From NCBI GenBank assembly GCA_043228905.1, contig JBHGNT010000004.1:12028001-12092000 (forward strand): a DNA stretch of 64,000 nt, in the 5' to 3' direction. The position numbers were made by a program, and so were the translations under genes. The notes under the pieces were generated by a model. It was not told the origin of the DNA. It did not search any database and worked only from the letters and a program-made list of their open reading frames with translations. The DNA comes from Azolla caroliniana (taxonomy: Eukaryota > Plantae > Polypodiophyta). This document shows positions 7,873-61,362 of this stretch, piece by piece. Within the stretch, counting starts at the first letter, position 1, and every line of letters begins with the position of its first letter.

Positions 7873-8573
7873 TGTCGCGTTGTTACGCGCGTGCGTGGAG
7901 GACAAGGCGGGACCACCGGGGTCTTGGATCGAGGAATAGGTGAGAAAAGGGAGAGAGAGAGACACGCTCACACACGTATAGACAAAGAAGTGCACGAGAA
8001 CGCGGCCCAACAACATAGGAGACACGAGTTGAGCCGGAGATAGAGTATAAGAACACTAGTGTGTGTATATAAATATATGTATGTATTTGTATGTATGCAG
8101 AGGACTCGAACGGTTACAGCCGATCAGGTCGGCGAGATGGATGTCGACGCCTGATCACCCACGTACATAGGGGAGCAAGATGGAGATTCCTCCGGAAGCA
8201 AACGGGCGTTCCATGGAGCAAAATCAGCCTCTCGAGAACCTGCGCAAAAGAAAGCTATGGAGAACGACAGAAAAGAAGAGCTCGGTCCCAGTCCGACAGC
8301 ACTTCGTCCCCTCTAGCGCGCGATCCCTTCTCTCCCCCGACTCCCTCTCTTTTATAGCTCAAGGAGGGAGGCCGTTTCACCCGTTTACATCACATTAATT
8401 CTCTGTCCTTTCAGACAGAGATACTTCTCGATTCTCCCTATAGAATATTGCTACCTAGGATTCGACCTTTGTGCCTACCTATCTACTATACAACAAGGGG
8501 CGTGCCCATGTGTAAGGGCCGGTTCACACACGCTATACACGGTTTGCACTTGGGGACGGTTTTCTTCACGACA
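7873..8573 (-). repeat. 3' LTR of gypsy D
   Basis: Inverted termini TGTCG/CGACA; the first ~330 bp recur at 18133-18462. Confidence 0.88.
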
Positions 8574-8649
8574 TCCGCCCCCACCTAACCGCGCATCCAC
8601 CGGTATGCGCCAAAATTGGGTTCCTACTGGAGAAAACCGGTCCTTGCTT

Positions 8650-11130
8650 TTATTCCTCGTTCACCGGTTCGTCCTCCGCCTCGGGCTGCTCGTCGTCGTG
8701 TCGTTTCTTGAACGCTTTGATCCTCTTCCCCGTCACCGGTATCGCCATTCTCATACCGTCGAGCTCCGCGAGATGGTACGTCCAATTGTCGTTGGCGCCT
8801 GTTACTACGTAAGGCCCGAACCACCTCCTCGTAAACTTCCGCGTGGCCCTGTGCTGATTGTCGAGGCTACTGTCATAGACTAGCACCCAGTCGCCTTCCT
8901 CGATCTTCCTTGGCCGGAGCTGGTGTGTTCGGTCGAACCGGGCTTTGTTCATTATCCTCGCTACCCGAAGTTTCTCCGCGGCTCGCTCTACGTCCTTCGG
9001 CCTCCGCTCGAGCTGTCGTATTTGTGCCGCCAACAGTTCCTCCCGGCTCATCTCATCCCTCCAGTCCACCGTGGCCCACAAGGAGATCGGTCGCTCTGTT
9101 GGCATGATCGGCTTCTGTCCGAACATAAGCTCTGCCGGCATGAACCCGGTTACCGAACTGTGCGTAGTCCGGTCCGCCCACAAGGCATAAGGTAGCAGCC
9201 GTGGCCAGTTCCCGACTTGGCCTCCGCACGCCCGTACTAGCGCTTTGACAATCGGCCCGTGTCCGCGCTCTACCTTCCCGTTCGCCTCCGGATTGTACGC
9301 TATGGTGAGCGAAAGTTGGACTCCTAGCCGGTCGAACAACTCTTCGGCCTCTTCTGCGTCCAACTCACCACGGTTAGCCACGATATTCCCTGCGCACCCG
9401 TATCGACATACCACGTCCTCAATCAAAAACCGGCACACGGCTGCAGTCGTCTTGTTCTGCAGGTCTCGGCCTTCAATCTGGTTCGTTAGATCCTCCCGAG
9501 CCAGCACCAGATACCGCATCTGTCCTACCCCCATTGGCATCGTCACCAAATCCACCATCCACTTGAAGTGGACGGTCGGAGGGTAGGTCGGGCGAAGCTT
9601 GTCCCGGTGTCGGATCATGGAGTGCACCTGACAGCTTTCGCAAGTCGTCACGAACCGATGCACGTCCCGGTATAGTCCCGGCCATCAGTACTTCCCCTTT
9701 AGCTTTTCGAACGTGGCCCACGTTCCACGGTGTCCAGCCCAAGGATTATCGTGGTACGCCGCCAGCAAATCCTCATGTTCCTCCTTCTTCGCCACCACTC
9801 GGAGCGGGATGCTGTTCCTCTTCTTTGCGTGCTTCCATATGTACCCGTCCCGGAGAAAGAATTGGTACGCTTTCTTCCGAATCCGGTTGGCCTCATCCTT
9901 TGTCCATGCCGCGTCCGGTGTCATTGTTTTCAGGAACCCGTCGATCTGCAACCACTCCCCGTTGTACTTGCTCTCGTCGAAATCGTTAAGCGTTGGAGTG
10001 CATTCCCTGCTGGTTGTTACGTAAGCCGCCTCGAAGAAGTCCACGCTGACTTCCTCGTCCTCCGAAACCATGCCGCCCTCGTTTGCGAACCTCGGCCTTG
10101 AAAGCATGTCGGCCATGGCATTGTCTTTCCTGGAAATGTGTCGTATTTCCGGATTCAGGGACTTGATGTATGCTATCCACCCGAGCATTGCCAGGTCCGG
10201 CGTTGCGCATCCGGAAACCATGCCAAGAATTGGCAGGCAGTCCGTCTCGATAATTACCTCTGTCCCGATCAGGTAGTCTTTATCGGCCTTTACCGCCGAA
10301 ACGATACCCTAGAGCTCGCGTTTAACCTGGGCGTATCCTCGCTATCGCTCGCTGAGGACCTTCGCGCCGAACTGGATCGGGAAACGCTTGCCGTCCTCGT
10401 CCTCTTGGTTGACAACCCATCCGATCCCGGTCGGACTCGTGTCTGCCGTTACGTAAATTGGAGTGTCCTTTCCGTAGACAGCCTTTCGGAGCGCTGGAGC
10501 TTCAACAAGTGCTTCCTTCATCTTTCGGACAGACTCTATATGCTCGTCTTTCCACTCGAATTTTCGCCCCTTTTTCAACAACCTGTATAACGGCACCACG
10601 ATGTGGGCGTAATGCGGGATCCATATGTGGTAGAACGCGCATGCTCCCAAGAACCTCCGAACCTCCGTGACCGAGCTACAATCATGCTTCATCGCGGAGA
10701 TGGCTTCTACCTTAGCCGGAGACGGTTTCTGCCCATACGACCCGCATAGGTGTCCGACGACCATGATCTCTAATTTCCCGAAGGCCGAGTTTTCCCCGGA
10801 GAAGGTGAGCCTCGTGCCCTCTAACCTCTGCACACCTTCTCGCAGTCATGATGTGCGTCGCCACGAATTTCCGGCACCCGTCCGGTCCGATCGTCTCGTC
10901 CTTTTCCTCCACCGGGTATCCCTTGATTTCCTCTCCAGGCCCGAGGATACCACATGCCCGAAGTCGCTCCTCCGCCCTTTTCTTCTTCCGGCCAACGACG
11001 TCGACTATCGTACCCCCTCCTTGTCGGAGAACCAAAATTTCCTACCTATAGTACAGGTCTTCTTCGCTATCGTACACTTGTGGGGGTTTCCCGGAGTGTC
11101 CGGACTATCGCGGCTCCACGCCTTGATAGC
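8650..11130 (-). pseudogene. pol: Gypsy D pol: RT C-terminal part, RNase H, integrase
   Basis: ORFs 10342-10833 (EVRRFLG, TADTS), 9685-10221 (NAMADMLSR, YHD..GHRG), 8650-9663 (CESC, VDL, NGKVER, GPY). The RT core is deleted. Confidence 0.88.
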
Positions 11131-11135
11131 CCTCT

Positions 11136-12572
11136 CTAAAAATCCTCTCGGCTTTCACCCCCGAGGGTCTCACGGTTCCGCTCATGGTTCGGTCTCACCG
11201 TCAGGAACTGGACCGAGTGACGCCCATCCTGGCTCTTGACCCTTGCATAGGCCGAGCCGTTGTCCAGCACCTTGGTCTCCATCCGTGCTGCCGTGATGTA
11301 CGGTTCTCCTAGTATAACCGGATGTGAGGACGTCTCCTGCACGAAGAAGTGCTGGTCAATCTCGACATCGCCGATCTTTACTCGTACATTCGGGCAGGCT
11401 CCATGCAGTTCTTTGGTGGCACGCGTCGCTGCCCCTATTTTCCACCCGTGCTTGGTGGCACGCGGTCCGCCTCTTCTTTCCTTTGTCGTGCGCCGGTGAG
11501 GCCTTCTAGCATCGTTGGCCAGAACCCGGCTTTTTTCGTCTTCGGGGCCTCGCCACCTCCGAACCGAATACCAGCTGACGCCGAGTAGTGGACGACCTCC
11601 GCGTGGCGTGCCGCCGCCTCCTCCATCAGCCTTTCATACCTCCTCTCCCGACGTTCAGGTCCAGGGCCCTTCGGGTCTCGCTGGCGTGCACCCGACCGTT
11701 CCATAGGTACACCACGTTGCTTCTCATCGCCTCGGCGAAGTCCCGGTAGTCCTTCCGGATCTGGCCAACCGCGTCACACCACATGCACCTGTTCCCAGCC
11801 AGAGGTCGTCGGTCACGGGCCTGTTCGCCACCATCCCTCCGTGCCTGGGCGATCTGGAGATCCTTTACCATCCGCGTTAGTTCTTCCAGAGCTGCTCCCC
11901 CGGACGAGCCCTTGACCATGCCGGTCGAAGCCGATCCGGTCTCGAGCCAATCTCGGGTCTCTTCCCTTCGCATTGGCGATGTTGGCTCAAGCTTCCTTGC
12001 TGCGACAGAGCCCGCCCCTGTCGATCCTTTGTCAACCCATTCCCTCCGTTTGTTGAAACGGCCACAGACCCTCTTCACCACGGCCCAGTCGGCCGTCAGC
12101 CCGTCATCAGTCTCCAATAGGAGGCCTACTTGCTCCCGATCCCGCTCGTCAACTAACTTAACAAACAATAGGACACGACTTGTGTCCAGAATTGTCCGGT
12201 CAAGCACTGAGAGGCGCGCGAAGTGTTCCTCAAACTCCCGGAGGAGCACCGACGCGTTCCTTCCTTTGTCGGGGGTCTCCAGCCACTCCATGAAGTCCCG
12301 CTTCGAAAGTCGAAGCGCATCTTCAAGCCCGTATTTTTCGAGGAGCTGACCTTCGAACTCCTCCCAGGTCCGGCTCTCGGCCCGTACCTCGAGCACCTCC
12401 GTATGGATGCCCGGCATCGCCACTCGAGGGAATCCGGCTAGACGCCTCTCTTCCGGAATGTCCCTCATTACCATCTCAGCCCGGTAGGACGCCAAGTAGC
12501 TCGTGGCATCCTTCCCACTAAACCGGCCGATCGTACCGATAACCGCCTTGATAGCCCTATCAAGGGCGCCGG
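11136..12572 (-). pseudogene. gag: Gypsy D gag with protease remnant; N-terminus lies at about 18020-18065
   Basis: ORF 11626-12495 with degenerate knuckle CMWCDAVGQ; 11136-11342 VILGEPY protease tail. Confidence 0.75.
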
Positions 12573-13027
12573 TGTTAGGAATAGTACTAAAGCAGAGATG
12601 GAATTAGTACTAAAGAACAACAGTACTATTAGTACTAAGAGGACGGGACTGCGTAAGATTCCCGAGAGAGGAAGTGAGAAGAGGAGAGAGAGAGATAGCG
12701 AGAATGAGAGAGAGAGAGAGATGATGACAACAACTAATATATTATGTGAAAAGATAAGTACAAGCGGCTAAGAGGCTTAAGACTGGCGTTGAACCAATTT
12801 GGTTCAAAACAATGCCTTGTGCCTCCTTTTATAGTGTTTTTAGGAATAATCCTGAAGCTTCTAGAATGTTCCAAAGAGATCTAGAATATACATCAATTTT
12901 CTATGATAAAGCATAAATGAAAATAATATCCTACAAAATACAATTCATAGTCTAATGGTAAGAGCTCGACCCATGTAGCATAAGGTCATGGGTTCGAGTC
13001 TTGCCATATCATGACACTATCTCCCCC

Positions 13028-14386
13028 TTAAAGACGACGAGTGGAACGAGTCGGTGCTAATTGCGGACCGGGTTTGTCCGGATATTTTGTGTGGAAATCA
13101 GCAAGAAGATCTTGTGCATTGGCAACATTCTCGACGGGTTCCCAAGTACGTTCGCTCGGACTATAACCGAGCCAATCGACCAAGTAATAAAGTTTGTTGC
13201 GAACAAGTTTGGAATCGAGGATGGCAGCAACTTCATACTCCGGGCCGGCGTCCAACTCCAGCGGGGGCGGCGGTGGTGTCACACGATCGGGAATGGTGTT
13301 TGCTTTATAAGGTTCAAGAAGAGAACAATGGAAAACCGGATGTATCTGAAGCTGCGGAGGGAGATCAAGGCGGAAGGTGACATCATTAATCTTCCCCGTA
13401 TGACGGAAAGGACCGAGTCGTCGATAATCCAACTTGTCGCACGGTCGAGTAGTCTTGATGTGACGACGTAAGAGCCATACTCGATCTCCGATGGCAAAAG
13501 AGGAGGGAATCCGATGACGATCCGCATAAGTCTTCTGTGTGTGTTGAGCATGACGAAGGTGAGTAGAGAGATCCATCTGGATCTTGCGTAGCCTCTCCAA
13601 ATGATCCTCAGCACGAGGGTTGGTAGGTAGCTCCGGAGTGTCGATCACCGACCAGCGAGGATGGAAACCGGTATAAGCGAAAAATGGGGAGACCCGAGTC
13701 GAGGAGTGAATAGCATTATTATACGCAAACTCCGCAAAGTGGAGAATCTCGGCCCAATCGTCCTGTTGATAACTCAGGAAACACCAGAGATATTGCTCCA
13801 GCATTTGGTTTGTTCGTTCCGCCTGTCCGTCGGTTTGAGGATGGTAGCCGGAGGAGAGGTTGCAGGAGACCTTGAGCATCTTGAAGAGATGCTGCCAAAA
13901 TTTGGAGACAAATTGCGGGCCTCGGTCACTGATAATACTGTCTGGGAGGCCATGATGCCGAAATACCTCACGTATAACAAGAGCGGCGGTTTCCTCGCTA
14001 GTGATGGCTTTAGTACATGGCACAAAATGTGCCATCTTCGTATATCGATCGACGACGGTTAGGATAGCATCGAACCCCTTCGAGACCGGCAGATCTGTGA
14101 TAAAATCAAGACAAATAGACAGCCATGGCTTACTTGGAATTGGTAAAGGTTCCAACAAGCCATATGGATGGTGTCGTGGCATCTTTGCTCGGCAACAAGC
14201 ATCACAGGTCCGAACGTAGTCGTCGACAAAACGGCGCATGTGGGGCCACCAAAAAGATCGCTGCACTAGTTCCAACGTCTTAGTACTACCGAAATGTCCC
14301 GCCGTATGGGTGTCGTGACAATGTTGGATGATTTGAAGGAGACAGGAGCAATCGGGGACATATACGCGCTTTTTAAAGAATAACAA
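13028..14386 (-). CDS. Integrase plus chromodomain of F (open portion of a disrupted pol)
   Basis: HD..GH..C..C zinc finger, LDF/SDRG/GQAER DDE triad, GPF motif, chromodomain EYEVAAILD..YYLVDWLGY..TWEP. Confidence 0.92.
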   Translation of the reverse strand: MLFFKKRVYVPDCSCLLQIIQHCHDTHTAGHFGSTKTLELVQRSFWWPHMRRFVDDYVRTCDACCRAKMPRHHPYGLLEPLPIPSKPWLSICLDFITDLPVSKGFDAILTVVDRYTKMAHFVPCTKAITSEETAALVIREVFRHHGLPDSIISDRGPQFVSKFWQHLFKMLKVSCNLSSGYHPQTDGQAERTNQMLEQYLWCFLSYQQDDWAEILHFAEFAYNNAIHSSTRVSPFFAYTGFHPRWSVIDTPELPTNPRAEDHLERLRKIQMDLSTHLRHAQHTQKTYADRHRIPSSFAIGDRVWLLRRHIKTTRPCDKLDYRRLGPFRHTGKINDVTFRLDLPPQLQIHPVFHCSLLEPYKANTIPDRVTPPPPPLELDAGPEYEVAAILDSKLVRNKLYYLVDWLGYSPSERTWEPVENVANAQDLLADFHTKYPDKPGPQLAPTRSTRRL

Positions 14387-14497
14387 ACCATCATGATATT
14401 CGAATTGCCGGTAGTCAATACCTGGTTGTTGAGACTGAGAACAGGATGCCCGAGAAGTATCAATGTGCGCTAGGATGTCTTGAGCAAAACTATCTGT

Positions 14498-16350
14498 CTA
14501 TAAGGTTGCACGTATGTCATCGGTAATTCGTGAATCCATCGGGGTGTGAAAAATCCGCGTCGTGTGCAATCGTGTTGGTCCCAAGATTACTTGCTTTTGA
14601 TTATCAAATGTTGCGTCACCAGGACAAGGTGCAAGATATGAACGTCGTGATAGTGCATCTGCTTTTCCTTGCTGCTTCCCCGGTCGATATGTGATTTTGA
14701 AGTCGAAACGCATGAGGAATTGCGCCCACCGAGCTTGCCGTCGATTTAGTATGCGAGCGTTCTGAAAATAAGCAAGATTTTTATGATCGCTAAAGAAAAT
14801 GACCTGATGTGGAGAGCCCTCTAAGAAATGCCGCCATTGTACAAATGAATCCACGATGGCTAATAACTCCTTGTCATGTATTTCGTAGTTGATTTCTGCG
14901 ACATCGAATTTGCGCGAATGGAAAGCCACCGGATGCAACTCTTCTTTATCGCCTTGTTGAGAAAGGATGCTACTGAGGGCGAAATCTGATGCGTCGGCCT
15001 CCATGATGAATGGTTTGCTTGTATCCACATGAGCTAGAATCGGTGCTGATGTAAAGGCTTTCTTAAGATGCCGAAAAGCCATATCTGCTTCGATGGACCA
15101 AAGAAATGCTTGGCCCTTCTTCGTAAGTTGTGTGAGAGGTAAAATAATCTTCGAGTAATCCTGTATAAACTTACGGCAGAAGTTAGCAAAACCTAGAAAA
15201 CATTGTACATCTTGTACCAACCGTGGAATTTGCCACTCTAGTACAGTTTGGATTTTAGCTGGATCCATGGCAATGCCCTTTGAGGAGATGACGTAGCCTA
15301 GAAATTCCACTTGCTTGCAGTCAAAGCTACATTTTTCTAGCTTGGCATAAAGACCATTCTCGCGGAGTCGCTTTAGTACTAATAGTACATGAGAATCGTG
15401 CTCTTCCTGGGTCTTTGAATAAATCAATAGATCATCCAGATAAATGATCAAACAGATATCCAAGAGGTCTCTGAATATATCATTTGCCATGTGTTAGAAG
15501 ACTGCGGGTGCATTGGTTAGGCCAAACGGCATAACAGTATACTCGAAATGCCCATACCGCGTGCGAAAAGCGGTCTTCCACTCATCTCCCAGTCGGATCC
15601 GCATGAGATTATACGCTCCTCGTAGGTCGATTTTAGTAAAAAACTTGGCACCATTAACTCGCTCTAAAAGACTTGATATAAGAGGAAGTGCATACCTATT
15701 CCGGATGGTGACTTTATTCAATCCGGGGTAATCAACGACAAGACGAAGTGAGCCATCTTTCTTCTTGACAAAGAAGATGGGTGCATCGGCCGGAGATTTC
15801 GAATGACGGATGAACCCGCTTGCCAAGTTCTCCTCTATGTAGGCTCGAAGGACTTCTAACTCGGTGGGTGACAAGTTGTAAATTGGTCCCCATGGTGGCT
15901 CGGTTCCTGGTTGTAAATCGATGGGACAGTCATAGGGACGGTGATGAGGAAGGGTACCGGCTTTTACCTTGTCAAATACATCGGCATACTAATTATATTA
16001 AATGATATTATACACACAAAACTACCTAGGACAACTTGAATGGGTTCTGATTCTTCTACAATATTCCCGGAAGCAATGGGACGACCATCAATGACCACTA
16101 CAGATACGGGACAAGGAAGTTTTCTTAAGGATATCTGAAAAGCTTGGGCAAAATTTCGATCCATGAAACAGGAATTAGCTCCTGAATCTAAAAGTGCTAG
16201 GACGGGTATTGGGGGAGTACTTTTAGTACTAACAATGACTTGGGCTAGGAACACATTGCTAACTTGCTTGGAAGGAATGGAACCACTAATGGGCTGTACA
16301 GATCTAGGGCTGCTGTCCAACCAAATGGCTCCTATTTTGGCTGGACTCAA
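14498..16350 (-). pseudogene. pol: F protease-RT-RNase H, with a stop and a ~250-bp deletion near 15988
   Basis: LLDSGA protease, [27 protein letters not shown]; deletion inferred by comparison with N (51068-51315). Confidence 0.92.
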
Positions 16351-17503
16351 TCGTTTAACTCTTCATCTAATTGACTAAGGATTTCAAATTTATTTGAGAT
16401 ACTTGGGCTATTAGTACTATAAATACTATCTGACACTCTATTAGTACTATTAATACTATCAGACACTCCGAAGGGAAGAATTGACTCGGGTTTAGTACAG
16501 GCGACGATTTGATTTACCTTTCTTCTTGGCCTATGGGGACAATTGATGGCGATATGTCCTGGTCCACCGCAATATAGACATAATCTATTGGCACGTTGTC
16601 GTTGCTTTTTTCTTCCGATAACGGGCCGCGTCGACGCATGGTATCGATCTCCATCGGTGTCGAAGTATTTGCTTGAGGTATGTCTCGTGCAAACGGTTTA
16701 GCCGCGACTGCAGCGTAAGTGGGTTCTGGCCTAGAGCGTGGTATCTGTAATTGACGTTCTGAACGCCGTTCGAAAAGGCGGTTGTCACATCGAACTGCTC
16801 GACTGATTGCCTCCGTAAGAGACTTTGGTTCTTCGGGGAAAGTTAGAAGTAGATCTTTGACATCGTTTCGCGAGCCATAGCGATACTGCTCCATTAGTGC
16901 TTGATCATCCCAGGGTATATCTGAAGTAAGTAGGCGGAAATCCGCCGCGTAGGCAGAGGCTGGACGATCGCCTTGACGCAATCGCCGGATCTTGTTGATC
17001 GCCGTCCTGATGCTATCGGTGTCTCCAAAGCAAGCTTTAAACTCACCAATAAAATCTTCAAGGTTATTAAGCAAGGGCGATTGTTTTTCTAGAAGCGGAG
17101 CGAACCATGCCAAGGCTGAGCCGCTAAGTAGCGTGCCTATTAGGCCGACTCGAGATGCATCAGTGGGATATCGGGAAGGATGCATTTGGATGACTAAGCG
17201 TACCTGATTAAGGAATCCCCGGAATTGCGAACGCGTTCCATCAAATTTCACAGGAAGTCCAATCTTGGGCTCTTTATGAAATCCTTGGGGACTTGATCCT
17301 TGTTGTTGCAACGCTGCTTCGAGTTGTTGTACCCGTAATGCTAACTCCCCATGTTGTTGTTGCGTTTGTTGTTTTTCTAGAGCGATTTGTTGCAGATCCC
17401 CTATCAGCTGTTGGTTTTCTTGTTCCAGGGCAACAAACTTTTCTTTTAGGCACTGTAGCTCGGAGAAAACGGATTGGTATTCTTGGGCGCTAATAGTAGC
17501 CAT
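16348..17503 (-). pseudogene. gag: F gag, with one frameshift before the CCHC knuckle
   Basis: PVKFDGTRSQFRGFL, LSGSALAW, LRQG..A..YAADF, PMEID; homologous to the open gag at 51549-52616. Confidence 0.88.
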
Positions 17504-18109
17504 AGTATAGGGAAAAGGGTAGGAGGATGAGGGAGAGTGACAAGTAGGCTAGAGGAAAAATTGGTTCAAACTGTCAGGAATAGTACTAAAGCAGAGATGG
17601 AATTAGTACTAAAGAACAACAGTACTATTAGTACTAAGAGGACGGGACTGCGTAAGATTCCCGAGAGAGGAAGTGAGAAGAGGAGAGAGAGAGATAGCGA
17701 GAATGAGAGAGAGAGAGAGATGATGACAACAACTAATATATTATGTGAAAAGATAAGTACAAGTGGCTAAGAGGCTTAAGACTGGCGTTGAACCAATTTG
17801 GTTCAAAACAATGCCTTGTGCCTCCTTTTATAGTGTTTTTAGGAATAATCCTGAAGCTTCTAGAATATTCCAGAGAGATCTGGAATATACATCAATTTTC
17901 TATGATAAAGCATAAATGAAAATAATATCCTAAAAAATACAATTCATAGTCTAATGGTAAGAGCTCGACCCATGTAGCATAAGGTCATGGGTTCGAGTCT
18001 TGCCATATCATGACAGCCAGTGCCTTCGCGCGCACTCATATACGGTCCACAGCGGAAGCCATGTCTTCCACGAGATCCGACCCCCTCATCTTCTACTCCT
18101 CTGCCACCG

Positions 18110-18127
18110 TTCACGTCGAGTTCACCA
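18110..18127 (-). other. PBS of gypsy D, complementary to the tRNA-Trp 3' end
   Basis: Plus strand TTCACGTCGAGTTCACCA matches the plant tRNA-Trp end TTCACGTCGGGTTCACCA (recalled from memory) at 17/18; 5 nt from the LTR. Confidence 0.75.
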
Positions 18128-19628
18128 AAAGATGTCGCGTTGTTACGCGCGTGCGTGGAGGACAAGGCGGGGCCACCGGGGTCTTGGATCGAGGAATAGG
18201 TGAGAAAAGGGAGAGAGAGAGACACGCTCACACACATATAGACAAAGAAGCGCACGGGAATGCGGCCCAACAACACAGGAGACATGAGTTGAGCCGAAGA
18301 TAGAGTATAAGAACACTAGTGTGTGTATATAAATATATGTATGTATTTGTATGTATGCAGAGGACTCGAACGGTTACAACCGATCAGGTCGGCGAGATGG
18401 ATGCCGACGCCTGATCACCCACGCACACACGGGAGCAAGATGGAGATTCCTCCGAAAGCAAATGAGAAAACGACTTTCGTCACCGAATGGGGGGTGTTTG
18501 TGGCCGTGGTGATGATGTTCGGACTCAAAACTGCACCGACAACATTTCAACGAATCATCATGGAAATCTTTGGTGAATATATTCTGGCTTTTATGCAGGT
18601 TTTCCTTGACGATTTCGCCATTTATAACCTGGAGGAGGACCATTTTCAGCACCTCCGTCTTTGTCTAGAAAAGTGTAGAGTGTACCAGCTAAGCTTGAAT
18701 CCGGCGAAGTGTGTATTTGGCGTGTCCAGTGGAACCTTACTAGGACATATTGTGAGCCAGGAAGGCATTGCAGTCGAACTAGACAAAGTGTAAGCCATAT
18801 TAGAAGCACCGGCGCCGGCAAAGACAAAGGCATTGAGCCGGTTCTTAGGCTAGATCCGGTGGCACACCCGGATGCTCTGATACTTGGCCGACCTGGCTAC
18901 ACCGTTGCATGCTGCCGTACATTGGACACCATTCCAGTGGACTAACACCGAGGATAGGGCGTATAGGGCCCTCAAGGTACTATTGTTGCAAGCACCGGTA
19001 GTGCAGCCTCCGGATTGGAGTAAAGAATTTCATGTGTTCGTGGATGCCTTCGACATCGCAATCAGAAGCGTATTGATGCAGCTTACGGAGCCAAAGTGGT
19101 ACCGGCCAGTGTATTATGCCAGCCGAAAGCTATCCCAAGCGGAACAAAACTACTCTACCACGGAACGGGAAGCTCTAGGGATGATCTACAGTGTGACAAA
19201 GTTTCGGCATTATTTATTGGGAAGGAAGTTTTCCTTCCATGTAGATCATTCGGCACTCCTCTACTTGGTGTCCAAGGCGTCACTCACCGGTAAATTGGCC
19301 CGGTGGACCTTACTGTTACAGGAATTTGAGTTCGAAATATTCCATCGACCTGGTATACAACATGCCATAGCGGATTATTTAAGCCGATTAGAGTTCGGAG
19401 AGACGGGCGACGGAGTAGCGGACGAGTTTCGGATGTGGAGCTGTTTCGAGTCACTACGGAAATGGCAGCAGATGAGACGGTGGCACAAGAAGACAAGTGG
19501 CTCACAAATATGCACCAGTTTCTGAGCACAGGACTGCCTCCGGAAGAGATGAACCGGGACGAAAGGAAACGCCTGGCGGTGCAAAGCCGACATTTATGCT
19601 TACTGCGAGACACACTTTACCACAAGGG

Positions 19629-22600
19629 TGTTGGGATTACGGTCCCTTCGGATGGGATGGTCGGATATCGGAGATGAATGCCGACAAGCCCGGTTTCGGT
19701 TTCGGATCCGGATGACGAAGACCCCGGTTTCGGTACCGGATGACGAATGTACCCGGAGAGCGATCCGGATGCAGGGACATATCCGTGAATATGTTCGCTA
19801 TGGGCCCCTGAGGCTATAGTTGTAAATAGCCCAAAGTCATATAAGTATAAATATGACTTAGGGCAAACAGTTTTACAGTTGCTTCTCATTTTTTTCTGTT
19901 TTTCCACTTTAGAGGAGTGAAGAGAGAGCAGCCGTGAGAGAGATAGAGCGCGAGAGAGGAAGAGGTAGACGCCTCTGTGTATTTCTGCCGCCTGTGGCGA
20001 GGACAGCGAGCTCAAGGTCGTCACCTTGCAGCTCGCCATTGTATACTTCTCTGTATAGTGTTGGTTTGGAGTCTTGTACTCCCGTGGTTTTTCCCGTCTA
20101 GGGTTTTCCACGTTAATCCCTGTGTACTCGCGTTTTTTGTTTCTCCGTGTGGTTCCTATTTTCTGCTCCATCGATTCGCGCTTACTCGGTTGTGGCAGAG
20201 TGAAGAAGGTGAATAGAGGGGTCTATTCCTAGCAAACTGGTATCAGAGCGAACTGCTGCAGAAAATGGAAGGCGGCGGCAGCGGGCAGCCGGGGATGATG
20301 GTGCTGAATGCACAGAATTACGCCGACTGGAAGATCAAGATGGAGGATCTTCTGATTGTTCGGGACCTGTACGAACCGATTGACAGGTCGGAAATACCGA
20401 AGGGGGTACTTGAGTCGGAATGGAGGCTTCTGAACCGGAAAGCCGTTGCAACCATTCGGCAATACGTCGATGTGAGCGTTCTACAACATGTGGCGAACGA
20501 CACCAACGCATATGAGATGTGGCGGAAGCTGTCGGGCCTCTATGAGAGGAAGAATGCGTTGAACCGAACCTCCCTGATGAGGAAGATAGTGAATCTCAAG
20601 TACCGGGATGGCGAGAGTATGGTGGAACACGTAAGCACGTTCATGGGATTCGTGAATCAGCTTGCGGCGATCAAGTTCCCGTTGGAGGATGCAATGCAAG
20701 CCATCATCCTGATGTGTACATTGCCGGAAAGCTGGGAGAACTTGGTGGTAACTCTCAGCACCTCCTGCGCCGAAGATAACTTGTCCTTACAAACGGTAAA
20801 GACAAGTATTTTGAATGAAGAAGCGCGTCGGAGAGATAAGGAACCGGCCTCCGACCCGAAGATGTTGTTTACCGAATCGGATCGGGGAAGACAATGGAAC
20901 CGGAGTCCGCAAAGACGGGAGAAGTCGGGGACCCGGTCGCAGTCAAGAGGAAGGCCCACATGCTTCCACTGTGGGAAGCCCGGGCACTTCCGAAAGAATT
21001 GTCGGCATTACCGAAAGGACAATGGAACCGACAACACCGATTCGAAGAAGTCACCGGAGAGAAACGGTGCATACCGGGGAGCCACGGACCGAAATGGTTC
21101 GGATCGGCGAGGACAGGACCGGAAAGGAACGACGGCACTCGCGGCAAGTGAAGAGGAGATCATGCTCATCACCGAAGAAGGTGAACTAAACATTGCCGGC
21201 GATGAGACGACCTGGGTGGTCGATTCCGGAGCATCGTTCCACCTGACCCCGGAGAGAAGATACTTCTCATCCTACACAGCCGGCGAGCATGGCTGTGTTC
21301 GGATGGGAAACGAAGGTACGTGCCGGATTGCCGGCATAGGAGACGTGTGGTTGACAACCCCGACCGGATGCAAAATGCTGCTGAAGAATGTCCGACACGT
21401 TCCGGAGGTCCGACTGAACCTGATTTCGGCCGGGAGGCTAGATGATGAAGGCTACACGGGTAGCATCCGGAACGGTGTCATGAAGTTCAGCAAGGGGAGC
21501 TTGATAGTGGCTCGGGCCCGGAAGGTCAACACACTGTACCTGATGAATGCCTGGTTATGTCCGGAAGAGCTGAATGTGGCAGCCGACACTGCCGGTGAGC
21601 TGTGGCACAAAAGACTGTGCCACATGAGTGAGAAGGGGATGAAGAGGCTTGCAGAAGACAACCTTATTCCAGTGAAGCACGTGCACCTGGAGAAGTGCAC
21701 CGATTGCCTGGCCGGTAAGCAGAACCGAGCCTCCTTCCACTCAAGGCCACCGAAGAGACGTAGTGTACCATTGGAGTTGGTACACACTGATGTGTGTCAA
21801 GTAGAAACGAAGTCACATGGCGGAGCCCAGTACTTCGTGACATTCATTGATGACCACAGCCGGAAGCTGTGGACGGCACCGATGAAGACAAAGGACCAAG
21901 TGTTGTGCGTCTTCAAAGAACTCCACGCGAGAGTGGAAAGGGAATCCGGCAAGAAGCTGAAAGCGATACGAGCGGATAACGGAGGGGAATACCGGGGGCA
22001 GTTCCAGGAGTACTGTCGCTCGAAGGGAATCCGACTCGAGTTTACTGTGCCGAAGACGCCGGAACTGAACGGGCTGGCCGAGAGGATGAACCGGACCATA
22101 ATGGAGAGGGTCCGGAGTATGCTGGCGCAGGCGGAATTACCCAAGGGTTTTTGGGCTGAGGCGATGTCGACGGCGACATACGTGATAAACAGATCACCCT
22201 CAGTACCTTTGGACGGAGACACGCCGCAGAGAGTGTGGACCGGTAGGGAAGTATCCTACCGGCATCTGAAGGTGTTCGGGTGTCTCGCATACGTGCATGT
22301 GGCAAAGGACCAGAGAGGAAAGCTAGATCCAAAGACCCGGCCATGCATATTCCTCGGATACGGCGACGACGAGTTCGGCTACCGAGTATGGGACCCGGTT
22401 GACAAGAAGATATTCAGGAGTCGAGACATCATCTTCATGGAGGACAAGACACTCGCCGACTGGGAGTCGGAGAAGAAGATGAAGAGCTCCAAGTCAACCG
22501 GTGAGGATAAACTCTACGAGGAGCAGTCCCGACCGGCAAGGGACCAGTTAGCACTCGAGGATCCGGCCGAAGACGGTGAAGAAACCGAACCGGCCGAAGA

Positions 22601-24954
22601 AGACGAAAATGATACCGGAACCGGCCCCGATCCCGAAATGGATTCGGATGAAGAAGAATCGGAAGAACCGGTTACCGAAGCTCCGGAACGGAGATATCCT
22701 CTAAGAGAGAGAAGGGCCCCCCGGAGATTTCCGGAACCAGAGCACGTGCTGCTAACCGACGAGGGGGAGCCGGAGAGCTTTGAAGAAGCAAAGCATGACA
22801 CCCAGAGCCGCAGGTGGTTGAGTGCCATGCAGGACGAGATGGATTCCCTGCATGAGAACCACACATATGAACTTGTGGAGTTGCCGAAAGGAAAGTGGGC
22901 ACTTCGAAACAAGTGGGTGTTCAAGCTGAAACCGGGAGATGCCGGAAACCCCCCGAGATACAAAGCCAGGATCGTGGTGAAGGGGTTTCAGCAGAAGAAG
23001 GGCGTCGACTTCGACGAGATATTTGCTCCGGTAGTGAAGATGACCTCCATCCGAACGGTGCTGAGCATAGCGGCAAGCATGGACCTCGAGGTAGAACAGA
23101 TGGACGTGAAGACGACATTCCTTCACGGTGACCTCGAAGAAGAGATCTACATGCAGCAACCGGAAGGATTCGAGAAGAAAGGGAAGGAGCACCTGGTATG
23201 CCGGTTGAAGAAGAGCCTTTACGGACTGAAGCAGGCTCCCCGGCAATGGTACCGGAAGTTCGACTCCTTCATGACCGACGAAGGGTACCTCAAAACGCAG
23301 TCCGACCACTGCGTGTTTGTGAAGAAGTTCGAAGAAGGAGACTCTCTAATACTCCTCCTGTACGTGGACGACATGTTGATCGTCGGACGGGATCAGGTCA
23401 AGATACGGATACTGAAGAAGGCTCTTCACCGAACCTTCTCAATGAAGGACCTGGGTCCGGCGAGGCAAATACTAGGGATGCACATCATCCGGGACCGGAA
23501 GAAGAAGCAGTTGTGGCTGTCACAGGAGAAGTACGTGACGAAGGTGCTTCACCGGTTCAACATGTCGGAAGCAAGACCGGTCGGATCGACCCTCCCGACA
23601 AACTGCAAGCTGTCCAGCAAGCAAAGTCCCAAGACAAAGGCTGAAAAGGAGGATATGATGAAAGTACCGTATGCCTCAGCTGTCGGGAGCTTGATGTACG
23701 CCATGGTGTGTACGAGACCGGACATCGGATATGCAGTCGGAGTGGTGAGCCGGTACATGAGCAATCCCGGCAAAGAGCATTGGAACGCGGCCAAGTGGAT
23801 ACTCCGATACCTGAAGGGCACGGCAAACGTGTGCCTCCGATTCGGCTCCGGAAAGCCCGAACTCGACGGCTTTACCGATTCGGATATGTCGGCTGATGCA
23901 GATACCAGCCGGTCCACATCAGGGTATGTGATGACGTATGCAGGGGGAGCTGTTTCCTGGCAGTCGAGGCTGCAGAAGACGGTTGCGTTGTCAACCACGG
24001 AGGCGGAGTACATGGCGGCTGTTGAAGCCGGCAAGGAAATAATATGGATGAAGGACTTCATTAGAGAGCTCGGTATCCAACAGGAGGAGTACCGACTCTA
24101 CTGCGACAGTCAGAGTGCAATCCACCTTGCGAAGAACGCGGCCTATCACTCCCGGACGAAGCACATCCAGCGAAGATATCACTGGATCCGGGAAAGGATA
24201 GAAGACAAGGAGTTCGTGCTGACAAAGATCCACACAGACGAGAACGGGTCGGATATGCTGACCAAGGTGCTCACACCCGACAAGCTGGAAGCATGCCGGA
24301 AGAGGATCGGATTGGAGAGACATCCCATGCCGAAGTGAAGGGGGAGTTTGTTGGGATTACGGTCCCTTCGGATGGGATGGTCGGATATCGGAGATGAATG
24401 CCGACAAGCCCGGTTTCGGTTTCGGATCCGGATGACGAAGACCCCGGTTTCGGTACCGGATGACGAATGTACCCGGAGAGCGATCCGGATGCAGGGACAT
24501 ATCCGTGAATATGTTCGCTATGGGCCCCTGAGGCTACAGTTGTAAATAGCCCAAAGTCATATAAGTATAAATATGACTTAGGGCAAACAGTTTTACAGTT
24601 GCTTCTCATTTTTTTCTGTTTTTCCACTTTAGAGGAGTGAAGAGAGAGCAGCCGTGAGAGAGATAGAGCGCGAGAGAGGAAGAGGTAGACGCCTCTGTGT
24701 ATTTCCGCCGCCTGTGGCGAGGACAGCGAGCTCAAGGTCGTCGCCTTGCAGCTCGCCATTGTATACTTCTCTGTATAGTGTTGGTTTGGAGTCTTGTACT
24801 CCCGTGGTTTTTCCCGTCTAGGGTTTTCCACGTTAATCCCTGTGTACTCGCGTTTTTTGTTTCTCCGTGTGGTTCCTATTTTCTGCTCCATCGATTCGCG
24901 CTTACTCGGTTGTGGCAGAGTGAAGAAGGTGAATAGAAGGGTCTATTCCTTGCA
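19629..24954 (+). mobile_element. Intact Ty1/copia element H (Tnt1/Tork-like)
   Basis: LTRs 19629-20234 and 24349-24954 (606 bp, about 5 differences), perfect TSD AAGGG, PBS TGGTATCAGAGC at 20238-20249, PPT GAAGGGGGAG at 24337-24346. Confidence 0.98.
20265..24338 (+). CDS. Copia Gag-Pol polyprotein, 1357 aa, intact
   Basis: CFHCGKPGHFRKNC knuckle, VDSGAS protease, HHCC plus TD/ADNGGEY/LAER integrase, YVDD RT, FTDSD/TEAEY/CDSQSA RNase H. Confidence 0.97.
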   Translation: MEGGGSGQPGMMVLNAQNYADWKIKMEDLLIVRDLYEPIDRSEIPKGVLESEWRLLNRKAVATIRQYVDVSVLQHVANDTNAYEMWRKLSGLYERKNALNRTSLMRKIVNLKYRDGESMVEHVSTFMGFVNQLAAIKFPLEDAMQAIILMCTLPESWENLVVTLSTSCAEDNLSLQTVKTSILNEEARRRDKEPASDPKMLFTESDRGRQWNRSPQRREKSGTRSQSRGRPTCFHCGKPGHFRKNCRHYRKDNGTDNTDSKKSPERNGAYRGATDRNGSDRRGQDRKGTTALAASEEEIMLITEEGELNIAGDETTWVVDSGASFHLTPERRYFSSYTAGEHGCVRMGNEGTCRIAGIGDVWLTTPTGCKMLLKNVRHVPEVRLNLISAGRLDDEGYTGSIRNGVMKFSKGSLIVARARKVNTLYLMNAWLCPEELNVAADTAGELWHKRLCHMSEKGMKRLAEDNLIPVKHVHLEKCTDCLAGKQNRASFHSRPPKRRSVPLELVHTDVCQVETKSHGGAQYFVTFIDDHSRKLWTAPMKTKDQVLCVFKELHARVERESGKKLKAIRADNGGEYRGQFQEYCRSKGIRLEFTVPKTPELNGLAERMNRTIMERVRSMLAQAELPKGFWAEAMSTATYVINRSPSVPLDGDTPQRVWTGREVSYRHLKVFGCLAYVHVAKDQRGKLDPKTRPCIFLGYGDDEFGYRVWDPVDKKIFRSRDIIFMEDKTLADWESEKKMKSSKSTGEDKLYEEQSRPARDQLALEDPAEDGEETEPAEEDENDTGTGPDPEMDSDEEESEEPVTEAPERRYPLRERRAPRRFPEPEHVLLTDEGEPESFEEAKHDTQSRRWLSAMQDEMDSLHENHTYELVELPKGKWALRNKWVFKLKPGDAGNPPRYKARIVVKGFQQKKGVDFDEIFAPVVKMTSIRTVLSIAASMDLEVEQMDVKTTFLHGDLEEEIYMQQPEGFEKKGKEHLVCRLKKSLYGLKQAPRQWYRKFDSFMTDEGYLKTQSDHCVFVKKFEEGDSLILLLYVDDMLIVGRDQVKIRILKKALHRTFSMKDLGPARQILGMHIIRDRKKKQLWLSQEKYVTKVLHRFNMSEARPVGSTLPTNCKLSSKQSPKTKAEKEDMMKVPYASAVGSLMYAMVCTRPDIGYAVGVVSRYMSNPGKEHWNAAKWILRYLKGTANVCLRFGSGKPELDGFTDSDMSADADTSRSTSGYVMTYAGGAVSWQSRLQKTVALSTTEAEYMAAVEAGKEIIWMKDFIRELGIQQEEYRLYCDSQSAIHLAKNAAYHSRTKHIQRRYHWIRERIEDKEFVLTKIHTDENGSDMLTKVLTPDKLEACRKRIGLERHPMPK

Positions 24955-29419: not shown

Positions 29420-29474
29420 CAAGGGTCGGATGGTGGATTCGACGTACAAGGTACTGTCCCACGGGCGTGCCATG

Positions 29475-29908
29475 TGTTACCGGCCTGCAAAGGAGTCCAG
29501 AGTGTGAAACGGAGGAGTTAATTAATTATTAGGAATGGTTGTAAGTAAGCTATTAGTGTGGATGGACGAACCAGAATCGGTATGCCATTCCGGATCCGGA
29601 CTGATCCCGAACAGGTGCGGATGGCACCGTTTTGTACTACAGAACGGAAACCTATTTAAAGGCCCGGATACAATGTAATGAGGAGCGGTTAATTAATAAA
29701 GCTTAGTGTTTTTATCTCTTTGTGTTAATTGCCGTTCTGCATTCATTGTTATATCTTACGCGTGTGATTATTAAGGACGATCTTGCTAAGTAGCCTAATT
29801 AAGTCAGATTAATCGTTGAGTCTAATCCTATTGCCGTAACACCCCTTTGGTGAAGTGTCTTCCGTAGACACCCTTTGTTAGGCCATTGTCCGGCCCTAAG
29901 AGTTAACA
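29475..29908 (+). repeat. 3' LTR of gypsy E
   Basis: TGTTA..TAACA ends, CTATTTAAA near 29652, AATAAA near 29695; partner LTR absent. Confidence 0.7.
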
Positions 29909-38036: not shown

Positions 38037-38660
38037 GTTTGAATCCCTTCCAACTAGAAGCACCACTCGTTTTCGTCATCGCCTTTGCTTCTAGAGTTAC
38101 CATCATCACTGACAATGCTTTCAGAATTACCGTCATCAACATCATTGTCTTCGACATCATCATTTTTAGCACCTCTTCGCCCAAACATCAGCGTCATCAA
38201 CACTACTTGTCATCATTTTTAGGTATCATTTTGCATCACGGTTTTGGTGAGGACCGCACATGGTCGCTCCCACTCATGTTGGTGTTCCAATCTCCGGTGA
38301 GGACTGCACATGGTCACTCACACTCACGTTGGTGTTCCAATCTCCGGTGAGGAACGAACATGGTTGCTCACGCTCACATTGGTGTCTAGTCTCCGGTGAG
38401 AACCACACATGGTTGCCTGCGTTCACCCGTGCTCCTATTTATGGTGTGGACTACTTATGGTCACTCACACGGCCACCTCAATGTACTTTTGTTTTCTCTT
38501 TCAACTCACCCCTACACCACACTTTCGAAAAGGCGGCCGTAAAGAGGAGGATAATGTCACAGACATGATGACAAGATTTGAACTCGTGACCTCTTGTATA
38601 TAGTCAAGTGTTGTGTTCTAACCAACACATCCAAATATATAGTCATATTGTATATTTTGT
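38029..38660 (+). mobile_element. Non-coding LTR element of family L, partial copy
   Basis: LTR end CCGTGACA then GTTTGAATCCCTT, ~50-bp array 38246-38470, PPT AAAGAGGAGGATAA, 3' LTR start TGTCACA at 38555; inverse homolog of 61681-63469. Confidence 0.75.
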
Positions 38661-47669: not shown

Positions 47670-48689
47670 CGATCGGGAATAGTGTTTGCTTTATAAGGTT
47701 CAAGAAGAGAGCTATGGAAAACCGGATGTATCTGAAGATGTGGAGGGAGATCAAGGCGGAACGTGACATCATTAACCTTACTAGTAATGCGGAAAGGACC
47801 CAATCGTCGATAATCCAAGTTGTCGCGTGGTCGAGTAGTCTTGATGTGACGACGTAAGAGCCATACTCGATCTCTGATGGCAAAAGAGGAGGGAAGCCGA
47901 TGCTGATCCGCATAAGTCTTCTGTGTGTGTTGAGCATGATGAAGATGAGTAGAGAGATCCATTTGGATCTTGCGTAGCCTCTCCAAAGGATCCTCGACAC
48001 GAGCATTGGCGATCGGGAATAGTGTTTGCTTTATAAGGTTCAAGAAGAGAGCTATGGAAAACCGGATGTATCTGAAGATGTGGAGGGAGATCAAGGCGGA
48101 ACGTGACATCATTAACCTTACTAGTAATGCGGAAAGGACCCAATCGTCGATAATCCAAGTTGTCGCGTGGTCGAGTAGTCTTGATGTGACGACGTAAGAG
48201 CCATACTCGATCTCTGATGGCAAAAGAGGAGGGAAGCCGATGCTGATCCGCATAAGTCTTCTGTGTGTGTTGAGCATGATGAAGATGAGTAGAGAGATCC
48301 ATTTGGATCTTGCGTAGCCTCTCCAAAGGATCCTCGACACGAGCATTGGCGATCGGGAATAGTGTTTGCTTTATAAGGTTCAAGAAGAGAGCTATGGAAA
48401 ACCGGATGTATCTGAAGATGTGGAGGGAGATCAAGGCGGAACGTGACATCATTAACCTTACTAGTAATGCGGAAAGGACCCAATCGTCGATAATCCAAGT
48501 TGTCGCGTGGTCGAGTAGTCTTGATGTGACGACGTAAGAGCCATACTCGATCTCTGATGGCAAAAGAGGAGGGAAGCCGATGCCGATCCGCATAAGTCTT
48601 CTGTGTGTGTTGAGCATGATGAAGATGAGTAGAGAGATCCATTTGGATCTTGCGTAGCCTCTCCAAAGGATCCTCGACACGAGCATTGG
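47670..48689. repeat. 340-bp tandem triplication inside the integrase of N
   Basis: Units start at 47670, 48010 and 48350; near-identical. Confidence 0.95.
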
Positions 48690-56074: not shown

Positions 56075-57587
56075 ACAACCATCTACGACCTCGCGGTCAA
56101 CAATAACTTATAGCACCGGCATTCCATGGAGGCCCACGGTTTGGAGATAGGCACCCACGACAAAAGAACATCGTCTAAAACCGAGCTTTTGTCCATGTTG
56201 AGTGCCCTCGCAAGACAACTCGTGTCATTTTGCAAATTGTACCATCTGTATCGGCATCCCTCGTTCCTCCACATCCCCTTCACACACCTCTCCCCTCTCG
56301 ATTTTAGGAGCATGCACGGGACTACCCATTTGGTAGCCGACATTGTAATCGATTCTACCCGTCTTTTTAATTTTTACCATCCTAACCTCCCCTCATTTTT
56401 CTCATATTACCACTTTATCCCTCCCATTATCTTTTAAATTACCCTCCTATCCCTCCCTTTACTTTTGAAAATTACCACCCTACCCTTGCGCTCACTTTTC
56501 CCAAACTACTACCCTACCCCTCCTCTTACCTTTGTTTTACATACCCCCCTACCCTCCTACCCCTTTAAACCCTCACTTTTCATTATCACGCCTCTACCCC
56601 TCCATCACTTTTACCTCTACCCCCTCCCTTCCCACTTTTAAGCTTTTTTTATACTCTACCCCTCCTCCAACTTTTCCCTACTTACGCCTCTACCCCTCCT
56701 CCACCTTTTCCCTATTTACGCCTCTACCCCTCCAACTTTTTCCCTATTTACGCCACTACCCCTCCATTTTACCTAACCCACCCTATACCCCTTATTCTGA
56801 ACTCATGATTTATCCCTACCCCTCATCCCTCTAAATCTCTCTCTCTTTATCTCTCTTACTTTTTGGCCCTACACTTTTGCTCATATTACCTTCTCGTTTC
56901 CCTATATTTTAACACCCTTACCATTACCCTCTCCTTCCTCAACAAACACATGTGCACATCCTTTACCCTCTCTCTTACCTTTTTGTTTTTTTTCTCCCCT
57001 ACACCCTCTCACCATTCCCTTTTCCTTATCTTTAAAAACCTTACACCCCACTACCATCCTTTAATGTGCACATATGAACATAGCACACCCCTACCCCCCA
57101 CTACCTATTTTGATCCCACACCCTCACTCTACCCCTCTCCTAAAATCCTATATAAACCCCTTCCCTCAACCTCATGGTCTTATGACATTGATGAGCCCTT
57201 CGAGGCGACACTAGTTTGATGGTTACGTAAGACCATGCCCCCATTACCCCTCTTCCTTACCCTCCTACCCCTCCCTTTACCTTGTGTTACACTTAGGGTT
57301 ATGTTTTTTTATTGTTTACGGTTTAATCATTTTATTAGTTTTTATGTTTAGCCCCCACCCCCCTTCCCCTTTCTCCCTCTCTTTCATTTTTTAATTAGTA
57401 TGTTAATCCCCTACCCTTGCCCCTCTTCTTAATACCTACTCCCGTCTCTTCGTATACAACAAGCACTCTATTGATTCAGGTGCGCTCAATCGACCTTGGT
57501 GTTCCTCTTCTCCAATCTCATTTGCCTGACGATGATCCACCATTTCCGCACTCCTCGTCTACAACCTCGCGGTCAACAATAACTTAT
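56075..57587 (+). mobile_element. Insertion O: candidate non-autonomous Penelope-like or retrozyme element
   Basis: 30-bp direct repeat at 56082-56111 and 57558-57587, ~26-bp degenerate target duplication, TACCC-rich tract, TATA box plus hammerhead-like motif; no TG..CA LTRs. Confidence 0.55.
57173..57237 (+). ncRNA. Degenerate type I minimal hammerhead ribozyme
   Basis: CATGGTCTTATG..TTGATGA-GCC-CTTCGA-GGC-GACA-CTAG-TT..CGTAAGACCATG; two core mismatches against CTGATGA/GAAA. Confidence 0.6.
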
Positions 57588-60500: not shown

Positions 60501-61362
60501 GTTTTTTTGACGACCTAAATGATGATACCAAAGTTCGTGAGCTGATAGAATGAGAATATTCATGTCGAGGAAGATTCGTTGATCGACGGAGATGTTGGTG
60601 TCAAGCGTTTCGATCAAAGAAGTCGATCGATGAGAGGATCGATGGAAGTTCTGGTTGAAGAAAGATGAGGATCAAGGCCTATGGGATTGACATGCAAGGC
60701 ACTCTCCCACAGGCGTGCGATTATGTGTTACCATACGGGATGTACGGGTGATGTAGAGTGTGATGAGCAAGGGTCGAATGCTATAATGTTGTTAATGTGT
60801 ATGTGTAAATGTGTAAGTGTAATTGTGAGTGTGAGTAATTACGTATGTGTACACATGCACACGTGTGTGCATGTGGATGGATACGAGGAGATGTGAGTGA
60901 GTGATTAGTATGAATGGAGAAGGGGGCTTGCACCCCAATGTATCTACCCCCTCTTGTAACTATTTAACCCCTTATGGGGAATGAATGAAACATGAAAGGA
61001 ATAGTTCTCTCTCAATCTCTCTCTGTCTCTCTTGTCATCTTTCTTTCTCTCCCTCTTCCCTAACATTGAACCCGCTTGGGAGAGGGGTCCAGCCATTCTA
61101 GGCACCACCCCCCACCCCACAATGCTTCTCAATGCCATCACCATTTCCATCTTTATTATTATCATCAATCCTCCCAAGGCTCATCGCACACACCATTTCG
61201 TTTTAGGTCTTTTTCTTTCTTTCTTTTTTTCCCTCTCTATTTGTATTTGTCTTGTTCTCTACGTCCTTCTTCCTCTTTTATGTTTCCTCTCTTTCTCTTC
61301 CTCTTTCTCTTTTGCTTGGTTCTCTCTTTCTTTTCTATTTTGACGTATCTTGTCAACAACAC

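Follow-up and report, generated by a model that had tools for sequence, protein, structure and literature searches.

Which primer starts the second strand of a long terminal repeat (LTR) retrotransposon that has no polypurine tract (PPT) before its 3' LTR? All retroviruses and LTR retrotransposons are described as starting the plus strand from a PPT (PMC5371799, PMC12789967), and first-strand priming is described as varied, by whole tRNA, half tRNA or self-priming (PMC6317226). The question is raised by element E, a gypsy element in the 64,000-nt stretch of DNA analysed here (the window), in which a tRNA-like block stands where the PPT is expected.

A tRNA-like block at the position of the PPT

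An earlier reading made from the letters alone (the sequence-only reading) had placed a tRNA-like motif just before the 3' LTR of E and had seen no purine run there. Both points were borne out. The motif GTCCCACGGGCGTGCCA occupies 29456-29472, TG follows at 29473-29474, and TGTTACC begins at 29475; the final 15 nt contain 8 purines. Six other 3' LTRs in the window have a visible purine run (9-12 purines in 15 nt), and the LTR of element P and a P-like LTR at 39726 likewise have 8 of 15. The last purine run of at least 11 nt in E ends at 29127, with none beyond. No polypurine tract was thus found before the E 3' LTR; the position is taken by a block that is common to many contigs. The tRNA likeness extends 23 nt farther upstream than first noticed, to 29433, and the suspected one-nucleotide gap relative to the tRNA end is present. 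The features are as follows (L010 and L012 are loci of non-host tRNAs):

29433-29472, + strand: tRNA copy, 40-nt block ending 2 nt before the 434-bp E 3' LTR; split in three, with an inserted 13-nt hairpin and one base lost
29433-29442, + strand: piece 1, T-stem 5' strand and T-loop; 9 of 10 nt match the non-host tRNA-Arg(TCT) L012
29443-29455, + strand: 13-nt insert in the T-loop; contains a 4-bp hairpin with a 3-nt loop
29456-29462, + strand: piece 2, T-loop end and T-stem 3' strand; 7 of 7 nt match L012; followed (after 29462) by the one-base gap relative to the tRNA
29463-29472, + strand: piece 3, final 10 tRNA nt ending in CCA; 10 of 10 nt match L012 and 9 of 10 match L010
29473-29474, + strand: TG spacer; dinucleotide predicted to be trimmed by integrase

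With the variant at 29437, piece 1 matches L012 at 10 of 10 positions. In the predicted fold that joins the tRNA end to the minus strand, the 13-nt insert forms a looped-out hairpin. Alignment shows this hairpin in element P as well: both bases of one pair are altered there, and the outer pair no longer forms on the + strand. Viewed on the minus strand, piece 3 reads as a putative inverted primer binding site (PBS). The TG spacer is mirrored by CA after the LTR end in two 5'-LTR copies from metagenomes (L003 and L007).

A loose 16-nt pattern with 3 mismatches occurred twice in the 64 kb against 1.1 expected, which is not above chance. A rough count gave p ~5e-4 for a 10-nt tRNA end at the fixed LTR junction, and p ~5e-11 for the same junction with the two further tRNA pieces added. 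Rfam had no match to the block at expectation values up to 10.

Element E and the polarity of its LTR

The window is heavily nested with elements, and the parts of E that it holds are:

18463-19628, + strand: RT-RNase H part of E pol (RVT_1, RT_RNaseH); decayed, 5' end missing; 80% to polyprotein P0128
24955-26256, + strand: integrase part of E pol (rve); 80% to P0128
26619-29400, + strand: extra ORF region between pol and the block; stop-broken, coiled-coil-like
29475-29908, + strand: E 3' LTR, 434 bp; ends set by 7 metagenome loci, of which 3 have the LTR complete (89-93% identity)

RVT_1, RT_RNaseH and rve lie in this order on the + strand, which is the domain order of Ty3/gypsy, and 3.2 kb separate the integrase from the LTR. 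The extra ORF region had no Pfam match; its Atlas hits, a Transposase_32 cluster (0.85) and an ATHILA cluster (0.83), fall below 0.9 and are leads only. No viral loci were found for the E integrase. The 5' half of E is absent in the window, where an LTR remnant of another element (18133-18462) abuts the E RT; this half was lost through deletion. Within E pol lies a copia element on the + strand (19629-24954; LTRs 99.2% identical, 5-bp target duplication, open 1373-aa frame), which is a recent insertion.

The TATA-like and poly(A)-like signals claimed for the + strand of the LTR were recovered, as TATTTAAA at 29653 (no TATA-like signal was found on the minus strand) and as AATAAA at 29695-29700. 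In 4 of 4 runs, loose ends behind 29909 also fix the end of the LTR, and they agree in each run with the continuation seen at L003 and L007. The right flank of the E LTR is copia RT sequence, and locus L006 has this flank too.

A scan with the right end of the LTR returned seven metagenome loci, two of which continue with CAGTTTT. At L003 the LTR is followed by TGGCGACCAC and then by a same-strand ORF. This ORF has four longer relatives at 72-75% identity, three of them with Retrotrans_gag. P0128 is 52% identical to it at the N-terminus and 80% identical to the RT-RNase H and integrase parts of E. A TG...CA LTR with a TGG-type PBS and sense gag was therefore found on the copy L003, not on E itself. 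Locus L007 has the whole LTR without the block to its left, as expected of a 5' LTR. Since LTR, PBS, gag and pol lie on one strand, the block is a sense tRNA copy before a 3' LTR. Two ways in which the sequence-only reading could have failed were tested: an LTR belonging to a separate minus-strand element is contradicted by the TGG-type PBS and sense gag after the L003 LTR, and a normal PPT was seen neither in E nor in the junction contigs of other copies.

The block was present at none of the seven metagenome loci, including the three with the whole LTR, and among the contigs and loci examined none carried both junctions or a full-length element. At L002 and L005 the flanks are unrelated on either side and show no target duplication; these loci are perhaps chimeric. 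At L004, positions 32-45 hold an LTR end, a 3-nt spacer and a PBS-like stretch starting with TGG; the sequence beyond resembles the copia LTRs of the window, and the PBS-like stretch is probably due to chance.

Identity of the tRNA

The block had been claimed to resemble tRNA-Arg(UCU). The likeness holds, with 26 of the final 28 nt found in a non-host tRNA-Arg(UCU), and on this comparison the isoacceptor is likely, not certain, to be tRNA-Arg(UCU). The tRNAs compared came from a search with a pattern of the plant tRNA-Arg(UCU) end, so that the search is partly circular, and they are not host tRNAs. The pattern hit five loci in the viral collection, which ARAGORN assigned to tRNA-Arg(TCT) (2 of 5), to intron-bearing tRNA-Leu (2) and to no tRNA (1). 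The 64-kb window contains no tRNA genes. A plant PBS primer, 2237, shares its final 9 nt with the block (PMC7798630). The junction pattern had no matches in viral contigs. Two loci in bacterial MAGs carry it without LTR similarity and without a tRNA, and were taken as chance.

Conservation of the block

Depth was taken from the contigs of four runs (three samples, three studies) and is no copy number. The bin that holds the block was 6.8-15 times deeper than the bin on its left and had 5.8-28.5 times the depth of a bin inside the LTR (4 of 4 runs in both cases); it had 0.9-1.5 times the depth of the conserved right end of the LTR (4 runs). Variants were tabulated for four runs with four organism labels (413-1089 contigs per run, at 80% likeness and a 2% share). 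In this table, which is under-sensitive near ends and missed a majority variant at 29486 listed in the depth analysis, the sole block variant is at 29437, at 29-75% of depth in the four runs. It completes the match to the tRNA. No indels inside the block are listed in the table for these runs.

On either side of the block, loose ends with a mixed consensus (agreement ~0.5) lead away from it; it is therefore common to several families. The upstream loose ends resemble the upstream sequence of E, yet differ among families. The junction together with E-like upstream sequence is present in many contigs of six runs. Because the block is inherited through the RNA template and is conserved, selection is implied.

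The 5' PBS of the lineage

We take the primer of the 5' PBS to be tRNA-Arg(UCG). A pattern for this tRNA type gave no matches; a shorter 5' PBS pattern gave 71, one of which is a tRNA (a phage tRNA-Arg(TCT)). The PBS motifs of the lineage had no match in five supplements of PMC6317226. The spacer between 5' LTR and PBS is T-rich and 7 nt long, and the PBS departs from the Athila Asp/Asn sequence after 5 nt. The 5' PBS and the block are two different tRNA sites.

Element P and other look-alikes in the window

A homologous block had also been claimed for element P. It is present and 36 nt long; it ends in CGA, not CCA, and stands 5 nt before TGTTACC at 60726:

60685-60720, + strand: decayed block of P; 65% over 121 columns with the E junction, expectation 2e-6

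Of 2842 tiles on both strands, that of E itself aside, it alone matched the E block strongly (score 59; mean 15.8, sd 4.0). P is a decayed copy that has lost CCA and has a 5-nt spacer. No block precedes the P-like LTR start at 39726. The P block and LTR start are flanked by an inverted repeat of 84% (60173-60318 and 61196-61355).

Gypsy F, on the minus strand at 7873-18462, has its 3' LTR at 7873-8574 and a normal PPT at 8575-8592, and so provides a control within the window. At 18462 its 5' LTR breaks off and is joined to the E RT. Its PBS (~18110-18132, behind a T-rich spacer) looks tRNA-Trp-like. A tRNA-Trp PBS is the Phygy type (PMC6317226). In the U3 of the gypsy F 3' LTR, 8457-8513 (+) is a degenerate look-alike of the block, with a T-loop piece, a CCA-type end and TGTGT; it scored 38, at the 99.9th percentile of tiles, and is either a relic of such a junction or chance.

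Other structures were noted in the window. A pyrimidine-rich insert in a copia RT (~56080-57590) has ~30-nt direct repeats at its edges, and related sequence occurs upstream of the L003 LTR. Arrays of 46-48-nt repeats at 62183-62690 and 38240-38530 belong to two copies of one element in opposite orientation. At 47670-48689, in a chromovirus integrase region, a 340-nt unit is present in three near-identical tandem copies, by duplication or as an assembly artefact.

Proposed priming of the plus strand by a host tRNA

We propose that a host arginine tRNA anneals to minus-strand DNA at the block and primes the plus strand, with a probability of roughly 0.55. This reading is favoured because CCA stands 2 nt from the LTR at the exact PPT position without a purine run, because 26 of 28 tRNA positions match and the depth of the block exceeds that of its flanks, because the sole listed variant is the one at 29437, the block is common to several families and the LTR polarity is +, and because the predicted tRNA duplex is far stronger than pairing of the block with the PBS or of the two ends. 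The sequence-only reading had suggested dual tRNA priming; its observations on the missing PPT, the LTR polarity and the tRNA match (to non-host tRNAs) stand, and the priming itself is what we infer from them.

The first step looks ordinary, since a TGG-type PBS and sense gag are observed after the 5' LTR in L003. RNase H would next strip the RNA over the block, since the block is not purine-rich. The minus-strand DNA is then predicted to form a small hairpin that leaves a 10-nt site exposed, and the final 28 nt of the tRNA are predicted to pair with it in three stretches of 10, 7 and 10 bp, separated by one bulge and by the looped-out hairpin. Synthesis from the CCA end would produce first TG and then the LTR; the tRNA would be removed by RNase H like a PPT, and integrase would trim two bases.

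With RNA parameters as a proxy, the duplex of the tRNA end with the minus strand is predicted at -47.9 to -50.5 kcal/mol; RNA parameters give -10.0 kcal/mol for pairing of block and PBS and -17.7 for pairing of the 5' and 3' ends. A plain tRNA duplex loses strength through the one-base gap and the insert. In minus-strand DNA folded alone, the 10 nt of piece 3 are predicted to be single-stranded. On the minus strand a G-T wobble takes the place of the A-C mismatch that the common A at 29437 makes in the plus-strand hairpin, and for P the minus strand gives the better fold (z -2.3, against -0.3 for the plus strand). These modelled folds point to a mild strand asymmetry. For E itself, the folds do not stand out from those of shuffled sequence (z -0.9 and +0.9). 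We also considered a conserved partner for the acceptor stem, lying upstream in cis, and rejected it because the upstream sequence differs among families.

Several observations count against priming by a tRNA. The tRNAs compared are non-host, and only two of the five matches to the search pattern are tRNA-Arg(TCT). None of the seven loci has the block, and no full-length element with both junctions was seen. The E folds do not exceed shuffles, and the variant table is under-sensitive near ends. Plus strands are started from a PPT in Ty3 and retroviruses (PMC5371799, PMC12789967).

We lean slightly towards the wider statement that an Athila-like gypsy lineage has had its PPT replaced by an inverted, three-part tRNA binding site. 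The fullest version has an even chance in our estimate: a successful multi-species plant gypsy lineage in which two different host arginine tRNAs prime both strands, the first at the PBS of the RNA and the second on minus-strand DNA, at an inverted site with a three-way junction that takes the place of the PPT.

Alternative explanations

The leading alternative, which we consider rather unlikely, is that the element's own RNA is the primer. The block would survive RNase H as a tRNA-like piece, a captured tRNA end with no host tRNA acting, and its T-arm hairpin and 10-bp hybrid ending in CCA would be recognised by RT like a first-strand initiation complex. The 30-nt T-arm part is predicted to fold as an extended RNA hairpin at -7.5 kcal/mol, no second packaged tRNA is needed, and the usual logic of a cis primer is kept (PMC5371799). 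However, the whole 40-nt block folds best, as RNA, into another hairpin in which the 3' end is buried, and the common 29437 allele breaks a T-stem pair in the RNA. A self-mimic would be expected to copy the end of the first-strand primer, yet the two sites differ, and near-invariant, exact tRNA letters fit a partner in trans.

It is improbable, more so than the above, that the block is functional but not a primer. It could serve in pairing of the RNA ends, as an aid to packaging or strand transfer, or in binding a tRNA-handling protein, with the plus strand started from another RNase H fragment. A weak 5'-3' junction pairing (-17.7 kcal/mol, predicted) would fit, and the 3' tRNA sites of Ty3 and Drosophila gypsy bridge and do not prime (PMC5371799, PMC1635307). 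Those sites, however, are complementary to the tRNA in the RNA, whereas the E block is a sense copy. The left LTR end also needs a primer end to define it, and CCA stands at the expected place; the nearest purine-richer stretch (12 of 15) lies ~50 nt upstream and varies among families.

A neutral relic or local rearrangement, either the inverted 5' junction of another element or a minus-strand LTR with an ordinary PBS joined to E, is very improbable and largely refuted: the window is nested, the 5' half of E is deleted, the junction, read from the minus strand, does look like an LTR end with a PBS, and the same 9-nt end occurs in plant PBS primer 2237 (PMC7798630), but the same LTR has PBS and gag on the + strand in L003 (gag to P0128 52%, P0128 to E pol 80%), the junction with E-like upstream sequence recurs in many contigs of six runs, and the block is better conserved than either flank.

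Significance

A full-text search of the open literature, judged by title and start of abstract, gave no description of a tRNA-primed plus strand or of a tRNA copy at the PPT site. Second-strand priming of the tRNA type would be a route for which no earlier description was found. If host tRNA priming is true, a high-copy lineage that trades the PPT for a tRNA-type primer is an exception in second-strand synthesis, and primer selection by RT, RNase H specificity and tRNA packaging become directly testable. Annotation tools based on the PPT may mis-orient or miss such elements. Even if the element's own RNA were the primer, a non-purine, tRNA-derived self-primer would be unusual.

Comparison with known systems

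In Ty3, a tRNA primes at the PBS and an RNase H-resistant PPT primes the plus strand (PMC5371799), and retroviruses likewise use a tRNA at the PBS and a PPT for the plus strand (PMC12789967). The E lineage is similar to these canonical LTR elements in its LTRs, in the PBS after the 5' LTR, in the order gag-RT-RH-INT and in a primer site before the 3' LTR. It differs in that E has no purine tract and carries a sense tRNA 3' end at the primer site.

Among plant gypsy lineages, E resembles Athila (an OTA non-chromovirus) in having no chromodomain, no extra archaeal RNase H and a candidate extra ORF after pol (PMC6317226), and in the T-rich spacer between 5' LTR and PBS (10.64898/2026.03.20.713144, PMC6317226). 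The archaeal RNase H and the chromodomain are absent from E and from the precomputed Pfam domains of its long, close relatives P0126-P0128, P0131 and P0133. Unlike the PBS here, that of Athila is mostly tRNA-Asp or Asn, with a spacer of 3-6 bp against 7, and the Athila 3' junction has a PPT, the junction being conserved in 97% of Brassicaceae elements (10.64898/2026.03.20.713144). Judged by features, not by placement in a tree, the E lineage appears Athila-like at its 5' end and departs from Athila in PBS type and PPT. The closest named relatives of E are from Adiantum (a fern) and Riccia (a liverwort), which makes a seed-free plant the likely host. The Tat lineages (Ogre, Retand, TatI-III) are defined by an additional archaeal RNase H (PMC6317226), which E and its close relatives do not have. 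Phygy and Selgy are short, with an interior filled by the polyprotein, a Trp or Ala PBS and a 4-bp TSD, whereas E has 3.2 kb between integrase and LTR and a PBS that is not Trp-like.

Helenus TRIMs also have tRNA-derived sequence within an LTR element (PMC10886601). In Helenus, however, the tRNA part acts as a promoter within the LTR, both PBS and PPT are kept, and the author saw no role for it in priming. The bipartite PBS of Ty1, Ty3 and Drosophila gypsy is likewise comparable in that a second tRNA-related site lies near the 3' end and pairs into the T-arm (PMC5371799, PMC1635307). In the RNA, those sites are the complement of the first-strand primer, and they act when the minus strand is initiated (PMC5371799, PMC1635307); the block of E, unlike them, is sense in the RNA, and its pairing with a tRNA is possible only on minus-strand DNA.
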